A stretch of 64,000 nt of DNA from Eledone cirrhosa. Taxonomy: Eukaryota. Positions 19,491-57,100 of the stretch are shown piece after piece. The notes under the pieces were generated by a model that was given only the letters and a program-made list of their open reading frames with translations, searched no databases and had not been told where the DNA came from. The translations under genes were made by a program, and so were the position numbers. Every line of letters starts with the position of its first letter. Within the stretch, counting starts at the first letter, position 1. The stretch is from the NCBI GenBank assembly GCA_964016885.1, contig OZ024741.1, positions 369,272,001-369,336,000 on the forward strand. Reading direction: 5' to 3'.

Positions 19491-20221
19491 GTATCAGAGC
19501 TGTGATCTCTATATTTAGAGATTCTTTCCTGAGATATTCTACTTACATGTCCATACTATTAGAGCTGTGATCTCGGGGTCACCACTTTAGCAGTATTAGT
19601 TGTAGAGTAGTCGCCACTTTAGTAGGGTGGTAGAATCAGTGGTCGTTAGTTGCCAGTGTGGTAAGTGATAGTATCCTCGTTGGATTATCTTGTTGCCATA
19701 GACGTGAGGGAAGGTCCCTCGATCTATTTACCATCTATTTACAATATTCCTTTCGTCAGGTCGGCAATTCCAGCAGCATGGATTAAAGATGTCATTGAGA
19801 CACGAGTAACATAACAACGACTTCAACCGCAGTAATTAGAGATGAAATGTTTGTTTATTTATATGGTTGAAGTTACAGATAAAAAGTGGTTACAAAATGG
19901 AATGTGCCATTGCGCCGTTAAGCTGGCGAGGCTAGTGGTGCAGTATCTCACTGTTACATTATGCGTGTTGCTGGCTCGAAGTTTCTGGTACAAGCTAGAG
20001 ATTCTTCAAATCTTCGCGGGGAATTTCTTCCTCAGGGTGCGTAGGGATACATCCTCTTCTACTGGCGCTGATTGGCTGAACTGAGCCAAATCACGCACAG
20101 AGAATGTATGTGAGCCCGCGGAATGTAGGTCACTACAGTATCAGAGCTGTGATCTCTATATTTAGAGATTCTTTCCTGAGATATTCTACTTACATGTCCA
20201 TACTATTAGAGCTGTGATCTC
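19491..20221. repeat. 84-bp direct duplication flanking the solo LTR (19491-19574 and 20138-20221)
   Basis: The variant-specific string GTATCAGAGCTGTGATCTCTATATTTAG...CTACTTACATGTCCATACTATTAGAGCTGTGATCTC occurs on both sides; single copy at the empty site 54461-54544. Confidence 0.85.
19575..20137 (-). mobile_element. Truncated solo LTR inside the satellite, derived from the element at 42479-45166
   Basis: Near-identical to 42479-43040 and 44605-45166, with the same left and right satellite junctions; begins TGTAGTGACC on the minus strand. Confidence 0.93.
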
Positions 20222-41200: not shown

Positions 41201-42478
41201 TTCTTCCCTGAGATTTTCTAACCACATGTCTAGTATCAGAGCTCTGATCTCTAAATTCAGAGATTCTTTCCTGAGCCATTCTAACCACATATCCATAGTA
41301 TCAGAGCTGTGATCTCTCAATTCAAAGATTCTTTCCTGAGCCATTCTAACCACATATCCATATTATCAGAGCTCTGATCTCTCAATTCAGACATTCTTTC
41401 CTGAGACTTTCTAACACCATATCCATATTATCAGAGCTGTGTTCTCTCAATCCAGTGATTCTTTCCCAAGCCATTCTAACCACATATCCATAGTATCAGA
41501 GCTGTGATCTCTCAATTCAAAGATTCTTTCCTGAGCCATTCTAACCACATATCCATAGTATCAGAGCTGTGATCTCTCAATTCAGAGATTCTTTCCTGAG
41601 ACATTGTAACCACATGTCATAATACCAGAGCTGGGAATCCTCAATTCAGAGATTCTTTCCTGAAATATTCTAACCACATGTCTGTAGTATCAGAGCTGTG
41701 ATCTCACAATTCAGAGATTCTTTCCTGGGACATTGTAATTACATGTCCATAGTATCGGAGCTGTGATATCTCAATTCAGAGATTCTTTCCTGAGACATTT
41801 GAACTACATGTCCATAGTATCAGAGCTGTGATCTCTCAATTCAGAGATTCGTTCCTTAGACATTCTAACCCCATGTCCATTGTATCAGAGCTGTGATCTC
41901 TCAATCCAGTGACTCTTTCCGGAGGCATTCTAACCACATGTCATAACATCAGAGCTGTGATCTCTCAATTCTTCAGAGATTCTTTCCTGAGACATTCTAA
42001 CCACATGTCTATAGTTCAGAGCTGTGATCTCACAATTCAGAGATTCTTTCCTGAGACATTCTAATTACATGTCCATAGTATCAGAGCTATGATTTCTCAA
42101 TTCAGAGATTCTTTCCTGAGACATTTGAACTACATGTCCATGGAGATGTGATCTCTCAATTCAGAGATTCTTCCCTGAGACATTCTAACCACATGTCATA
42201 ATATCAGAGCTGTGATCTGTCAATTCAGAGATTATTGCCTGAGACATTCTAACTCCATGTCCATAGAATCACGGCTGTGATCTCTCAATCTAGTGATTCT
42301 TTCCTGAGACATTCTAACTCCATGTCCAAAATATTGGAGCTGTGATCTCTCAGTTCAGAGATTCTTTCCCGAGACATTCTAACTACATGTCATAGTATCA
42401 GAGCTGTGATCTCTATATTTAGAGATTCTTTCCTGAGATATTCTACTTACATGTCCATACTATTAGAGCTGTGATCTC

Positions 42479-43040
42479 GGGGTCACCACTTTAGCAGTAT
42501 TAGTTGTAGAGTAGTCGCCACTTTAGTAGGGTGGTAGAATCAGTGGTCGTTAGTTGCCAGTGTGGTAAGTGATAGTATCCTCGTTGGATTATCTTGTTGA
42601 CATAGACGTGAGGGAAGGTCCCTCGATCTATTTACCATCTATTCACAATATTCCTTTCCTCAGGTCGCCAATTCCAGCAGCATGGATTAAAGATGTTATT
42701 GAGACACGAGTAACATAACAACGACTTCAACCGCAGTAATTAGAGATGAAATGTTTGTTTATTTATATGGTTGAAGTTACAGATACAAAGAGGTTACAAA
42801 AATGGAATGTGCCATTGGCGTTAAGCCGGCGAGGCTAGTGGTGCAATATCTCACTGTTACATTATGCGTGTTGCTGGCTCGAAGTTTCTGGTACAAGCTA
42901 GTGATTCTTCAAATCTTCGCGGGGAATTTCTTCCTCAGGGTGCGTAGGGATACATCCTCTTCTACTGGCGCTGATTGGCTGAACTGAGCCAAATCACGCA
43001 CAGAGAATGTATGTGAGCCCGCGGAATGTAGGTCACTACA
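42479..43040 (-). repeat. 3' LTR, missing ~410 bp of its U5 end
   Basis: Starts TGTAGTGACC (minus strand) after the PPT; homology to the 5' LTR stops at GGTCACCA (42481-42488). Confidence 0.88.
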
Positions 43041-43052
43041 TCACCTCCAACC
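43041..43052 (-). promoter_or_regulatory. Polypurine tract
   Basis: Minus strand GGTTGGAGGTGA directly before TGTAGT of the 3' LTR. Confidence 0.7.
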
Positions 43053-44177
43053 AGATTTTCAGCCGAAAATCGATAACGAAGAAACCAAGGACCCACATAT
43101 TATTAAATCAGCAAGAACAAATGCTGAAAGAGCACATCAGTGAAAAAATAATTGAGCAGAAGGTTGCATGCAAGAACAAAAAATGAGGCGCTACGGGCCG
43201 TGTTGAGCCGCTGTGTCAAATGACCAGTTGTTTTGTTGTTTATACGTGACCGCCAAAGGTCTAACAAAAAACGGATAAAGTCTGACATGGGCGAGGTTGC
43301 TGTTCTTGCATTAAATGTTAATGGTAAGCGTTGTACCAGTAGCTGTGAACGAAGCTATTATGGTAGTTTATCAGTGCTGGCCACCAGATGTATTGTCGAA
43401 TGTGCTGTGGAGCCAGGAAAAAATGGCTGGTTGCTTTGTAAAGAACAAAAGGCAAGTTTAATCTGTAGATGGGTTGCAGTGTAAATTCCATAATTCGGGC
43501 GAATCCACAGAAGTGGCCGAAATGCTAACAAGTCTAGTTCAATTTGTTGCTTTCCCAGCGAGTCGGGCAAAAACAACAAGACGGATGGCCGTCATGGACG
43601 ATCAGTGTGCAACGAGATGCGAAGCTGTTTGAGTTCAGCTGCAATGTATTCTCGTGTTGCGGTGCCTGTTTGAATCCAGTGGATTAAGCTCTGTGAGCTG
43701 CTAGCATGTGACAGCATCTCAACCAGGTGAAAAGGGACTCGCAGAATATTACGTTTGAAGAACATATACCAAGAACAACATGTTGGTGTGTGATAAAAAA
43801 AATGTGTGCATATGCAGGCATGTAAAACAGCAAAGAATGTGAATGAACAAAAACCATGAGCAAGCAAATAGCAAAAGAGCACAAAACAAGTAAATGCATT
43901 CTACAAAGAAATATGTGAATGTAACAAACTGATAATTCAAAGTCAATCTAGGGGAGCAGAGAAATTGCTCAATAAGTTCAAAGTTTTTCAAAGTCAAATA
44001 GTTCACACATCACCAGTGTACAGACACTAGTTCTGTCCGAAAACTGAAAAAGAATTTTGTTAATGCCATTAGGGGTTAGATGTATGGTGTTTTTGTGAGA
44101 TTTCGTGGCCATTTTCCCGTCCCGCCACACGGTTGTGTTGCTTATTGTTAAAGCAAAGTCAAAGAATCTTCTGTAGA

Positions 44178-44190
44178 GTAGGAGTCACCA
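44178..44190 (-). promoter_or_regulatory. Primer-binding site, tRNA-Trp-like
   Basis: Minus strand TGGTGACTCCTAC versus TGGTGACCCCGAC, the complement of the metazoan tRNA-Trp 3' end (11/13 match). Confidence 0.75.
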
Positions 44191-44192
44191 AA

Positions 44193-45166
44193 TATGGCAG
44201 TCGCGTCAGACGCCATAATGGTGAGAAAACTACTGTCCCAATTTCTCGCGTCCCTGTGGTAACGAGACAGAAGGTATGGTAGTTGCGTTGGTAAAGTTAC
44301 AAGCCGTTTCGAAATTTCCGATGTGTGGTGGTTGGCGTTGGTAAGGTTATGAAGCTGCCACTCACTGTTCCCTGTATTGGTCAGTGGTTAAACAATGCTG
44401 TCGCTGCTGCTGTCATTGTTGTTGTCAAGCGTAGCCATGACATGTCGGTAGCAATCTTGAAATTTTTTCGTGGCGAAACAGTTTTTGAAATACTGCTAAT
44501 TTTTCAAAAATCTTAAGAGGAATATTCTGGATTTTTGCAAGTTGCGACGTGGCAATAAAAGTTAAACTGAATGAATAAGAAGGGCTGCGTGATATTCTTA
44601 CGTTGGTCACCACTTTAGCAGTATTGGTTATAGATGTTATCGTCACTTTAGCAGGGTGGTAGAATCAGTGGTCGTTAGTTGCCAGTGTGGTAAGTGATAG
44701 TATCCTCGTTGGATTATCTTGTTGCCATAGACGTGAGAGAAGGTCCCTCGATCTATTTACCATCTATTTACAATATTCCTTTCGTCAGGTCGGCAATTCC
44801 AGCAGCATGGATTAAAGATGTCATTGAGACACGAGTAACATAACAACGACTTCAACCGCAGTAATTAGAGATGAAATGTTTGTTTATTTATATGGTTGAA
44901 GTTACAGATAAAAAGTGGTTACAAAATGGAATGTGCCATTGCGCCGTTAAGCTGGCGAGGCTAGTGGTGCAATATCTCACTGTTACATTATGCGTGTTGC
45001 TGGCTCGAAGTTTCTGGTACAAGCTAGTGATTCTTCAAATCTTCGCGGGGAATTTCTTCCTCAGGGTGCGTAGGGATACATCCTCTTCTACTGGCGCTGA
45101 TTGGCTGAACTGAGCCAAATCACGCACAGAGAATGTATGTGAGCCCGCGGAATGTAGGTCACTACA
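44193..45166 (-). repeat. Complete 5' LTR (~970 bp)
   Basis: From TGTAGTGACC at 45166 to just before the PBS (inner end uncertain by about 2 nt); AATAAA on the minus strand at ~44883-44888. Confidence 0.8.
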
Positions 45167-48100
45167 GTATCAGAGCTGTGATCTCTATATTTAGAGATTC
45201 TTTCCTGAGATATTCTACTTACATGTCCATACTATTAGAGCTGTGATCTCTCAATTCAGAGATTCTTTCCTGAGACATTCTAACCCCATATCCATAGTAT
45301 CAAATCTGTGTTCTCTCAATCCAGTGATTCTTTCCCGAGCCATTCTAACCACATATCCATAGTATCAGAGCTGTGATCTCTCAATTCAGACATTCTTTCC
45401 TGAGAGATTCTAACCACATGTCATAATACCAGAGCTGTGAACCCTCAATTCAGAGATTCTTTCCTGAAATATTCTAACCACAGTTTCAGAGCTGTGATCT
45501 CACAATTCAGAGATTCTTTCCTGAGATATTCTAACATCATGTCTGTAGTATCAGAGCTGTGATCTCTCAATTCAGAGATTCTTTCCTGAGATATTCTAAC
45601 AACATGTCTGTATTATCAGAGCTGTGATCTCTCAATTCAGAGATTCTTTGTTGAGATATTCTAACAACATGTCTGTAGTATCAGAGCTGTGATCTCTCAA
45701 TTCAGAGATTCTTTCCTGAGACATTTTAACCACGTCATAATACCAGTGCTTTGATCTCTCAATTCAGAGATTCTTTGTTGAGATTTTCTAACCACATGTC
45801 TGTAGTATCAGAGCTGTGATCTCTCAATTCAAAGATTCTTTCCTGAGCCATTCTAACCACATATCATAAATTATCAGAGCTGTGATCTCTCAATTCAGAG
45901 ATTCTTTCCTGAGACATTCTAACCCCATATCCATAGTATCAGAGCTGTGTTCTCTCAATCCAGTGATTATTTCCCGAGTCATTCTAACCACATGTCATAA
46001 TACCAGAGCTAGGAACCCTCAATTCAGAGATTCTTTCCTTAGACATTCTAACCCCATGTCCATTGTATCAGAGCTGTGATCTCTCAATCCAGTGATTCTT
46101 TCCTGAGGCATTCTAACCACATGTCATAACATCAGAGCTGTGATCTCTCAATTCTTCAGAGATTCTTTCCTGAGACATTCTACTTACATGTCCATAGTAT
46201 TGGAGCTGTGATCACTCAATTCAGTGATTCTTTCCTGAGACAATCTAACCACATGTCTGTAGTTTCAGAGCTGTGATCTCACAATTGAGAGATTCGTTCC
46301 TGAGACATTCTAATTACATATCCATAGTATCAGAACTGTGATTTCTCAATTCAGAGATTCTTTCCTGAGACATTTGAACTACATGTCCATGGAGCTGTGA
46401 TCTCTCAATTCAGAGTTTCTTTCCTGAGCCATTCTAACCACATATCCATAGTATCAGAGCTGTGATCTCTCAATTCAGTGATTCTTTCCTGAGACATTGT
46501 AACCACACGTCATAATATCAGAGCTGTGATCTCTCAATTCAGAGATTCTTTCCTGAGCCATTCTAACCACATATCCATAGTATCAGAGCTGTGATCTCTC
46601 AATTCAGTGATTCTTTCCTGAGACATTGTAACCACACGTCATAATATCAGAGCTGTGATCTCTCAATTCAGAGATTCTTTCCTGAGACATTCTAACTCCA
46701 TGTCCATAGTATCAGAGCTGTGATTTCTCAATTCAGAGATTATTGCCTTAGACATTCTAACCACATATCCATAGTATCAGAGCTGTGATCTCTCAATTCA
46801 GAGATTCTTTCCTGAGATGTTCTAACCACATGTCTGTAGTTTCAGAGCTGTGATCTCTCAATTCAGAGAATCTTTCCTGCGACATTGTAACCACATGTCA
46901 TAATATCAGAGCTGTGATCTCTCAATTCAGAGATTCATTGCTGAGACATTCTAAACCCATGTCCATAGTATCGGAGCTGTGATCTCTCAATTCAGAGATT
47001 CTTTCCTGAGCCATTCTAACCACATGTCATAATATCAGAGCTGTGATCTCTCAATTCAGAGATTCTTTCCTGAGACATTCTAACCACATATCCATAGTAT
47101 CAGAGCTGTGATCTCTCAATTCAGAGATTCTTTCCTGAGCCATTCTAACCACATATCCATAGTATCAGAGCTGTGATCTCCCAATTCAGAGATTCTTTCC
47201 TGAGACATTGTAACCACATGTCATAATACCAGAGCTAGGAACCCTCAATTCAGAGATTCTTTCCTTAGACATTCTAACCCCATGTCCATTGTATCAGAGC
47301 TGTGATCTCTTAATCCAGTGATTCTTTCCTGAGGCATTCTAACCACATGTCATAACATCAGAGCTGTGATCTCTCAATTCTTCAGAGATTCTTTCCTGAG
47401 ACATTCTACTTACATGCCCATAGTATCGGAGCTGTGATCACTCAAATCAGTGATTCTTTCCTGAGACATTCTAACCAAATGTCTGTAGTTTCAGAGCTGT
47501 GATCTCACAATTCAGAGATTCTTTCCTGAGACATTCTAATTACATGTCCATAGTATCAGAGCTATGATTTCTCAATTCAGAGATTCTTTCCTGAGACATT
47601 TGAACTACATGTCCATGGAGCTGTGATCTCTCAATTCAGAGATTCTTCCCTGAGACATTCTAATCACATGTCATAATATCAGAGCTGTGATCTGTCAATT
47701 CAGAGATTATTGCCTGAGACATTCTAATCCCATGTCCATAGAATCACAGCTGTGATCTCTCAATCTAGTGATTCTTTCCTGAGACATTCTAAATCCATGT
47801 CCAAAGTATTGGAGCTGTGATCTCTCAGTTCAGAGATTCTTTCCTGAGACATTCTCACTACATGTCATAATATCAGAGCTGTGATCTCTATATTTAGAGA
47901 TTCTTTCCTGAGATATTCTAACTACATGTCACAGTATCAGAGCTGTGATCTCTATATTTAGAGATTCTTTCCTGAGATATTCTAACCACATGTCATAGTA
48001 TCAAAGCTGTGATCTCTCAATTCAGAGATTCTTTCCTGAGACATTCTAACCCCATATCCATAGTATCAGAGCTGCGTTCTCTCAATCCAGTGATTCTTTC

Positions 48101-54100: not shown

Positions 54101-57100
54101 ATTCAGAGATTCTTTCCTGAGACATTCTAATTACATGTCCATAGTATCAGAGCTATGATTTCTCAATTCAGAGATTCTTTCCTGAGACATTTGAACTACA
54201 TGTCCATGGAGCTGTGATCTCTCAATTCAGAGATTCTTCGGTGAGACATTCTAACCACATGTCATAATATCAGAGCTGTGATCTGTCAATTCAAAGATTA
54301 TTGCCAGAGACATTCTAACCCCATGTCCATAGAATCACGGCTGTGATCTCTCAATCTAGTGATTCTTTCCTGAGACGTTCTAACTCCATGTCGAAAGTAT
54401 TGGAGCTGTGATCTCTCAGTTCAGAGATTCTTTCCTGAGACATTCTAACTACATGTCATAGTATCAGAGCTGTGATCTCTATATTTAGAGATTCTTTCCT
54501 GAGATATTCTACTTACATGTCCATACTATTGGAGCTGTGATCTCTCAATTCAGAGATTCTTTCCTGAGACATTCTAACCCCATATCCATAGTATCAGAGC
54601 TGTGTTCTCTCAATCCAGTGATTCTTTCCCGAGCCATTCTAATCACATATCCATAGAATCAGAGCTGTGATCTCTCAATTCAGACATTCTTTCCTGAGAG
54701 ATTCTAACCACATGTCATAATACCAGAGCTGTGAACCCTCAATTCAGAGATTCTTTCCTGAAATATTCTAACCACATGTCTGTAGTTTCAGAGCTGTGAT
54801 CTCACAATTCAGAGATTCTTTCCTGAGATATTCTAACAACATGTCTGTAGTATCACAGCTGTGATCTCTCAATTCAGAGATTATTTGCTGAGATATTCTA
54901 ACAACATGACTGTAGTATCAGAGCTGTGATGTCTCAATTCAGAGATTCTTCCCTGAGACATTCTAACCACGTCATAATACCAGTGCTTTGATCTCTCAAT
55001 TCAGAGTTTCTTTCCTGAGCATTCTAACCACATATCCATAGTATCAGAGCTGTGATCTCTCAATTCAGAGATTCTTTCCTGAGACATTGTAACCACATGT
55101 CATAATACCAGAGCCGTGATCTCTCAATTCATAGATTCTTTCCTCAGACATTCTAACCACATGTGGTAGTATCAGAGCTGTGATCTCTCAATTCAGAGAT
55201 TCGTTCCTGAGACATTGTAACCACATGTCATAATATCAGAGCTGTGATCTCTCAATTCATTGATTCTTTCCTGAGAAATTCTAACCACATGTCATAATAT
55301 CAGAGCTGTGATCTCTCAATTCATAGATTCTTTCCTGAGACATTCTAACCACATGTCATAATATCAGAGCTGTGATCTCTCAATTCATAGATTCTTTCCT
55401 GAGACATTCTAACCACATGTCATAATACCAGTGCTTTGATCTCTCAACTCAGAGATTCTTTCCTGAGAAATTTTAACCCCATGTCCATAGTATCAGAGCT
55501 GTGTTCTCTCAATCCAGTTATTCTTTCCTGAGACATTCTAACCATATATCCATAGTATCAGAGCTGTGAACCCTCAATCCAGTGATTCTTTCCTGAGACA
55601 TTCTACTTACATGTCCATAGTATCGGAGCTGTGAACCCTCAATTCAGAGATTCTTTCCTGAGACATTTGAACTACATGTCCATAGTATCAGAGCTGTACC
55701 TCTCAATTCAGAGATTCTTTCCTTAGACATTCTAACCCCATGTCCATTGTATCAGAGCTGTGATCTCTCAATCCAGTGATTCTTTCCTGAGGCATTCTAA
55801 CCACATGTCATAACATCAGAGCTGTGATCTCTCAATTCTTCAGAGATTCGTTCCTGAGACATTCTACTTACATGTCCATAGTGTCGGAGCTGTGATCACT
55901 CAATTCAGTGATTCTTCCCTGAGACATTCTAACCACGTGTCTGTAGTTTCAAAGCTATCATCTCACAATTCAGAGCTTCTTTCCTGAGACATTCTAATTA
56001 CATGTCCATAGTATCAGAGCTGTGATTTCTCAATTCAGAGATTCTTTCCTGAGACATTGTAACCACATGTCATAATATCAGATCTGTGATCTCTCAATTC
56101 AGAGATTCTTTCTTGAGACATTGTAACCACATGTCATAATATCAGATCTGTGATCTCTCAATTCAGAGATTCTTTCCTGAGACATTCTAACCACATGTCC
56201 ATAGTATCAGAGCTGTGATCTCTAAATTCAGAGATTCTTTCCTGAGCCATTCTAACCACATATCCATAGTATCAGAGCTGTGATCTCTCAATCCAGTGAT
56301 TCTTTCCTGAAACATTGTAAACACATGTCATAATACCAGAGCTGTGATCTCTCAATTCAGAGATTCTTTCCTGAGATATTCTAACCACATGTCTGTAGTA
56401 TCACAGCTGTGATCTCTCAATTCAGAGATTATTGCCTGAGACATGCTAACCCCATGTCCATAGTATCGGAGCTGTGATCTCGCAATTCAGAGATTCTTTC
56501 CTGAGCCATTCTAACCACATATCCATAGTATCAGAGCTGTGATTTCTCAATTCAGAGATTCTTTCGTGAGACATTTGAACTACATGTCCATAGAGGTGTG
56601 ATCTGTCAATTCAGAGATTCTTTCCTGAGACATTTGAACTACATGTGCATAGAGCCGTGATCTCTCAATTCAGAGATTCCTCCCTGAGATTTTCTAACCA
56701 CATGTCTGTAGTATCAGAGCTGTGATCTCTAAATTCAGAGATTCTTTCCTGAGCCATTCTAACCACATGTCTGTAGTATCAGAGCTGTGATCTCTCAATT
56801 CAGAGATTCTTTCCTGACACAATCTAACCACGTCATAATACCAGTGCTTTGATCTATCAATTCAGAGATTCTTTCCTGAGACATTCTAACCACATATCTG
56901 TAGTATCAGAGCTGTGATCTCTCAATTCAGAGATTCTTTCCTGAGACATTCTAACCACATGTCTGTAGTATCAGAGCTGTGATCTCTCAATTCAGAGATT
57001 CTTTCCTGAGACATTCTAACCACATGTCTGTAGTATCAGAGCTGTGATCTCTCAATTCAGAGATTCTTTCCTGAGACAGTCTAACCACATGTCTGTAGTA

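Follow-up and report, generated by a model that had tools for sequence, protein, structure and literature searches.

The window analysed here, 64,000 nucleotides of the 3.0-Gb Eledone cirrhosa genome, carries on its minus strand an LTR retrotransposon that is probably a non-autonomous element of the CsRn1 type of Gypsy elements bearing a retained copy of its primer tRNA. The copy is a 12-nt tag behind a complete 3' LTR; it was likely left on plus-strand strong-stop DNA and joined to the chromosome by host repair after one-ended integration. Errors of this sort are known from the laboratory in HIV, ASLV, Tf1 and Ty3, and here they are seen fixed in the germ line of an animal. A single 12-nt tag is of modest interest on its own. 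As a class, such tails give a sequence-only readout of the second strand transfer of CsRn1-type elements, and they also bear on the persistence of a PBS that lacks two bases and on the modification sites of the primer tRNA.

The tag and the ends of the element

The sequence TCGGGGTCACCA is found at 42477-42488 and again at 19573-19584, as the earlier note had reported. Its likeness to tRNA-Trp, ascribed there to retained primer sequence, is borne out by the genes of the host. A tRNA-Trp motif has 66 genomic matches, and among the 15 loci that were read, 13 are genes, all with A58; eight of the 13 end in TCGGGGTCA and none has CC encoded behind it. The tag is therefore identical to the complementary strand of the mature 3' end of the host tRNA. 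ARAGORN called tRNA-Trp in five of the seven loci supplied to it, both misses being LTR-tail chimeras, and no tRNA gene was found in the window. When two mismatches are permitted, a search of the window gives 3 matches against 1.21 expected, a count reached by 10 of 100 shuffles. By itself this count is weak evidence; the case is carried by the position of the tag directly behind the LTR end and by its recurrence across the genome. Elsewhere in the genome, an array (G000:C4:353394883-353489292) packs about 48 matches to the tRNA-Trp motif into 95 kb.

The LTR of the family is 553 bp long, with TGT...AAA ends, and in whole copies the 3' repeat runs to position 553 and closes with CTGCTAAA. The 3' LTR of the window, which had been taken as truncated, reaches that same end (Table 1). 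Beyond it, and separated from it by a spacer G, sits the tag, and the 11 nt at 42479-42489 belong neither to the LTR nor to the host; the eight tag nucleotides once thought common to the LTR lie outside it. It is at just this place that plus-strand strong-stop DNA terminates with copied primer sequence. The stretch at 44600-44612, formerly placed inside the LTR as a cryptic U5 site, is a normal PBS, and every parsed 3' LTR ends there. Like the PBS of most copies it lacks two C relative to the tRNA, and it has one further change.

Table 1. Features of the insertion, its flanks and its sister copy in the window
Feature	Position	Strand	Remarks
Sister copy of the insertion in a duplicated satellite block	19491..20221	-	
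84-bp duplication of the sister copy	19491-19574, 20138-20221		
Tag of the sister copy	19573-19585		
Solo LTR of the sister copy	19586-20137		5'/3' LTR recombinant, crossover between 19709 and 19740
Tagged-end (U5) copy of the 84-bp host satellite duplication	42395..42478	.	
Tag	42479..42489	-	spacer G and 10 bases not from the host, complementary to the tRNA-Trp 3' end (12 with microhomology)
3' LTR, complete	42490..43040	-	551 bp, TGT...AAA; ends CTGCTAAA at 42490
Polypurine-tract region adjoining the 3' LTR	43041..43060	-	family-conserved
Internal region without a long ORF	43061..44599	-	longest stop-to-stop frame 102 aa
Second PBS-like motif (the 'PBS' of the earlier note)	44178..44190	-	about 420 bases into the internal region
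True PBS (tRNA-Trp)	44600..44612	-	reads ACGTTGGTCACCA; spacer of one base (G) from the 5' LTR
5' LTR	44614..45166	-	553 bp; normal U3 end at 45166
Normal-end (U3) copy of the 84-bp host duplication	45167..45250	.	exact match to 42395-42478
Empty homologous satellite site	54461..54544	.	single copy of the 84 bases; differs from the occupied flanks at 5 of 212 bases

For the LTR ends, 60 loci were read, made up of the 20 best matches and 40 of the 100 short-PBS matches listed. In 22 of them the 3' end lay beyond the locus or the 5' start was missing, L232, which had been picked for its tag, among them. The 38 other copies with both ends parsed include 31 with an exact 4-bp TSD (counting L085 and L077, the latter a tandem, from closer reading) and 34 with at most one mismatch; a tag behind the 3' LTR was found in none of the 38.

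These boundaries dispose of a tempting misreading, in which tRNA-Trp had primed at a cryptic U5 site of a 976-bp LTR and left the 3' LTR truncated. The 12-mer does match the tRNA end, but the scheme needs a 3' LTR cut internally, and the 3' LTR ends at the family end; it was rejected, with a probability that is next to nil. The LTR measures 553 bp with TSDs at that end, and in the 30 best loci the 976-bp unit is invariably followed by internal sequence, never by host DNA. A genome pattern search for 3' ends that fall at 976 bp came back empty, a weak blank since the pattern carried a window-specific base. The motif at 44178-44190 is conserved in the subfamily and holds a tRNA-Trp site with two mismatches at 44179-44190, much as had been described. 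In a genome pattern search no tRNA-corrected form of it was found, nor any sign of its use as a primer site.

Two LTRs, a PBS, a polypurine tract, the lack of a coding frame and ends in common with a coding family mark the window element as a non-autonomous LTR element. BLAST of 42479-45167 against the window returned only the element, its second LTR and the LTR at 19.6 kb. The CsRn1 clade is characterized by a tRNA-Trp PBS, a 4-bp TSD and LTR ends of TGT...AAA or ATA, as its description gives them (PMC2582038), and the family has a tRNA-Trp PBS directly behind the 5' LTR, a 4-bp TSD and TGT...AAA ends. As in the members described there (PwRn1, AgCR; PMC2582038), a CHCC Gag is also present in the coding partner. 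Unlike them, the window element encodes nothing, and the PBS of most copies is two bases short of the tRNA.

The coding family has a 227-bp LTR, the same LTR end and PBS as the window element, and RT and integrase domains; it is the likely helper. RVT_1 follows a protease-like stretch in one locus (L187), and Integrase_H2C2 follows an RNase H-like stretch, the latter read by eye, in another (L188). The CHCC motif was seen in the coding family only, at one of three loci in the frames scanned (L189), and the window element is without Gag. The initial 310 or so bases of the internal region are 73% like the leader of the coding family. Chimeras of the two families, joined at a tail or with a common LTR, occur at L188, L232, L117 and L114.

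The insertion junction and its sister copy

Where the family has a 4-bp TSD, the window copy has an 84-bp duplication of host satellite. Its U3 end is precise. At the U5 end there are 11 bases that are neither LTR nor host, followed by two that are common to tag and host, such that 42477-42478, the last two bases of the duplication, double as tag bases 11-12. One precise end, a second end with microhomology and a long host duplication are the marks of aberrant, one-ended integration, and the exact 84-bp duplication together with the 2-nt microhomology at the tagged end is its signature. In such events the free 3' end is reported to prime on nearby host DNA (PMC5041404). The likeness to one-ended integration of HIV-1 and ASLV, as that work presents it, extends to one normal end, a join by short homology and a long host duplication; the difference is that those events were obtained with drugs or engineered ends in cultured cells, whereas here the insertion is a natural one of the germ line and the bad end is likely a primer copy (PMC5041404). 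Annotation software that requires a short TSD and TG...CA ends in an LTR element will overlook such copies or misplace their bounds.

The tag had been noted at 19.6 kb as well. That copy shares the 84-bp duplication and the flanks of the window insertion, so the two represent one event in a duplicated block, and the 19.6-kb copy is not independent. The flanks of the two copies differ at 13 of 1800 bases (0.7%), and their satellite blocks align at offsets 22904 and 25029. At 19.6 kb the product of the window event has been reduced to a solo LTR by LTR-LTR recombination; the sequence of this LTR agrees with the 5' LTR as far as about position 398 and with the 3' LTR from 429 onward.

A 65-bp satellite fills the window from 7707 to its end (7707-63883), with nested higher-order duplications at offsets of 2133, 5620, 22904, 25029 and others. 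Outside it, at 1444-1694, an 82-bp repeat occurs three times.

That satellite blocks do rearrange here lends something to an account in which the insertion was normal at first, but its U5 end later suffered damage, was patched by means of another copy or of free cDNA, and rejoined the satellite 84 bp back. Such a patch would also account for the untouched U3 end and the foreign distal part of the LTR. It is very unlikely all the same: the duplication ends exactly at the normal U3 junction, the window holds no sister block with a 4-bp TSD version, and matching geometry is seen outside this satellite, at L084 and L223. Long duplications at a trimmed U5 end are present in two of the 38 untagged copies, L223 with 122 bp and L084 with about 65 bp, the latter read by eye (one-unit indel).

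Chance is less probable still. The tag differs by just two bases from the majority PBS allele, so a slip that added two C, or else an error of assembly at the junction, might seem to suffice, and no short-read contig listed bridges the junction, which is not evidence of absence. Against this, a source is needed for all 11 bases behind the LTR end, and the junction is found in two blocks that differ by 0.7%, and again at other loci. The short-read comparison (four runs from one study, at most two samples) covered 42440-42700; no listed piece joins satellite to LTR, a result uninformative either way. Loose contig ends at 42490, and a tRNA-like one at 42477, fit other copies of the family.

A probable two-template origin and a proposed route to the tag

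The LTR pair of the window is mismatched in a particular way. Positions 1-213 are identical, and all 19 differences fall in 214-541, a confinement with a chance of about 1.6e-4 under uniform spread (computed for 18 sites). In 20 other copies the LTR pairs show 2-10 differences, scattered. The 3' LTR of a second full copy, L188, likewise has a 12-nt tag, and 16 of the 17 LTR differences in this copy fall at position 210 or later. Differences at family-shared variants number 10 in the window and 8 in L188 against at most 5 in untagged pairs (n=34; Fisher about 0.002), a test whose cut-off was set after the data were seen, with only two tagged pairs and with no pair from 28 of the 63 loci. Judged by position alone, the differences appear to be confined to R-U5. 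The mismatch would fit the Ty1/Ty3 scheme, in which the first strong-stop product bears a tRNA copy, transfer is by R-U5 and primer sequence is mostly not inherited (PMC5371799); transfer via R-U5 would also explain how a defective PBS persists. A third tagged 3' LTR, L232, has its 13 nt behind the LTR of the other, coding family.

The same mismatch is accounted for if another copy, one with a full PBS, supplied the 3' LTR and the tag out of its own 5' LTR and PBS, again by one-ended integration; the cDNA would have been a tandem or a recombinant that broke 12 nt inside its second unit, and the tag would derive from a tRNA at one remove. The earlier note had held that native occurrence of the tag sequence in intact family copies, together with truncation points scattered at random, would speak against a tRNA origin, and the first part has been found: GGGGTCACCA is native in family copies as the 5' PBS, in 26 of 47 matches. 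These 26 carry the full PBS before the leader, tandem units sharing LTRs exist (L077, L232), and L190 unites the 3' LTR end of the window with a full PBS. The tail in the window, moreover, is shorter than the 15 nt common to the tRNA and the full-PBS allele, so that no base of it is tRNA-only, and the 12 nt by themselves would be compatible with an origin from the PBS of another copy. This origin is nonetheless unlikely. It gives no reason for a break within the PBS in three copies (12, 12 and 13 nt) or for tRNA-only bases in 16 of 18 tails, and it needs an extra crossover to leave LTR positions 1-213 identical.

Direct retention of the primer copy has further points against it. No close donor of the 3' R-U5 of the window was found, the best match being 97%. 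The LTR end of the window's 3' LTR is found with a full PBS in L190 and L166 and with a short PBS in L158. The idea that this 3' LTR end type accompanies the full PBS failed, as end type and PBS allele showed no association (3/10 vs 6/30, p 0.66).

With direct retention of the primer copy as the preferred reading, a route can be proposed. It starts from the 553-bp LTR, the PBS one base behind it and two complete LTRs. Plus-strand synthesis from the polypurine tract would have run through U3-R-U5 into the tRNA while this was still attached. Such read-through into the tRNA is established for Ty3 and HIV, and the first product is normally displaced. Here that first strong-stop product would have stayed as the right end, a 3' overhang. 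The LTR mismatch suggests that two different RNAs took part, one as the source of the primed R-U5 of the 3' LTR and the other as that of the body and of the 5' R-U5, where the PBS is defective. Integrase would then have inserted the U3 end, and the primer copy likely kept it from using the U5 end, leaving the joining to host repair. Once trimmed to 12 nt, the overhang may have annealed through two bases to satellite 84 bp off and from there primed DNA synthesis across the site. Later, as the sequence shows, the block underwent duplication, and one of the copies collapsed to a solo LTR.

Each step has precedent in HIV, Tf1 or Ty3, as far as the accounts cited go (PMC11042837, PMC5041404, PMC12657518, PMC5371799). 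About half of Tf1 cDNA is reported to retain a single-stranded PBS able to pair with host DNA, and HIV junctions to hold 1-4 PBS bases derived from the virus (PMC11042837). The window element resembles Tf1 and HIV-1 cDNA with a single-stranded 3' PBS in the pairing of host DNA with a PBS copy that lies past the 3' LTR; it departs from the self-priming, integrase-free events described for Tf1 in that the U3 end looks integrase-made and 10 of the tag bases are non-host (PMC11042837). In Helenus and TRIMp3, too, tRNA-like sequence is reported in a non-autonomous LTR element, there as a sense, promoter-bearing stretch inside both LTRs and here as an antisense 3' end outside one LTR (PMC10886601).

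tRNA-Trp tails across the genome

The window copy belongs to a larger class. The genome has 197 matches to the short PBS, which lacks the two C, and 47 to the LTR end plus full PBS, under patterns that permit no mismatches and also pick up the coding family; 40 of the 197 were examined and no genome-wide rate is claimed. This ratio agrees with rare inheritance of the primer as described for Ty1 and Ty3 (PMC5371799). The difference is that here the primer does seem at times to be inherited, and that dead-end products are fixed in the chromosome. Among the 47 (L188 assigned by hand, L096 and L107 set aside), 26 continue into the leader, 2 belong to another family and 19, from 18 events, join something else. 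Four of the 26 carry 17-18 tRNA bases.

The earlier note had predicted longer tRNA tails at the same nucleotide, and these were found, some of 18 and 38 nt. The 18 events have tails of 12, 12, 16, 17, 18 (seven times), 19, 27, 30, 32 and 38 (three times) nt; 16 of the 18 exceed the 15-nt PBS of the family and thus hold tRNA-only bases. The 38-nt tails end two bases before G37, a modified site. The mode of 18 nt is the length at which a stop is expected at m1A58 of the primer tRNA (PMC12657518). A pattern for long tails finds 29 loci, all behind an LTR-like end in AAG, with position 58 mismatched in 18 of them. Collapsed to 17 events, position 58 is mismatched in 6, against 3 of 172 positions left unfixed by the pattern (Fisher p 1.5e-5). 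Since all 13 genes have A58, these mismatches indicate that the long tails were most likely copied from mature, modified tRNA.

What follows the tails varies. Five single LTRs (L192, L193, L183, L185, L179) have a tail joined to host DNA, and no flanking duplication was found in these five, which counts against the reading preferred for the window. In L106, L178 and L184 the tail meets the start of another LTR, in L123 and L102 internal sequence, and in L188 the pol region of the coding family. Defective HIV-1 proviruses ascribed to delayed second-strand transfer and read-through of tRNA(Lys3) have a comparable order, LTR-PBS and then tRNA bases, with position-58 changes reported there in 5 of 44 (PMC12657518). 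L102, L117, L123 and L188 are like them in being joined to downstream element sequence. In HIV-1 the read-through lies behind the 5' LTR, at deletion junctions from patients, whereas here 3' LTRs and single LTRs carry it too, and it can be joined to host DNA (PMC12657518).

The genome may be a germ-line archive in which dead-end plus-strand strong-stop DNAs from tRNA-Trp-primed Gypsy families have been fixed. Their tails would record modified primer bases, through stops at 18 and 38 nt and misreading of position 58, and would be tied to two-RNA LTR pairs, and their fixation would have lengthened the PBSs and LTR ends of whole families. This wider reading is held tentatively, at somewhat under even confidence. 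If true, it would mean that animal Gypsy elements use the primer-independent second jump of Ty1 and Ty3, a proposition testable from assemblies alone. A literature search, thin in its coverage of subscription papers, brought up no survey at genome scale of tails like these in the Gypsy families of invertebrates, and novelty is unproven.

In a tree built from 45 LTR rows over the positions from 206 on, with 3 duplicates omitted, full-PBS copies are scattered among short-PBS ones, with 10 changes of PBS allele against 11.6 when shuffled. Only 3 changes are forced by supported branches, 21 of 41 branches being open. The scatter is suggestive of repeated restoration of the PBS, short of proof.

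Several further loci carry primer sequence in other arrangements. A family of LTRs (L127, L128, L139, L142-L144, L146-L149, L154) has a 32-nt tRNA-Trp read-through fixed as its PBS, with position 58 misread in 11 of 11 loci and a second LTR-end plus PBS coming next; L146 and L147 repeat the unit again. In L050, L051, L175 and L182 an 18-nt tail is followed by an inverted tRNA 3' half, giving a hairpin; the inverted part is similar to the PBS of 32 nt in the L127 family, which suggests a switch of template from one family to another. An older LTR variant, L176, has a PBS copy matching at 17 of 18 positions within the LTR, before its end. The window has a decayed look-alike of this at 44614-44690, and its LTR holds a second LTR-end-plus-PBS-like repeat about 37 bases before the LTR end; LTR ends may grow through the capture of tails. 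L126 has a 49-nt tail misread at tRNA positions 58 and 37. Behind the 38-nt tail of L183, the host junction shows short repeats of the tail's last bases, like the templated insertions of end joining.
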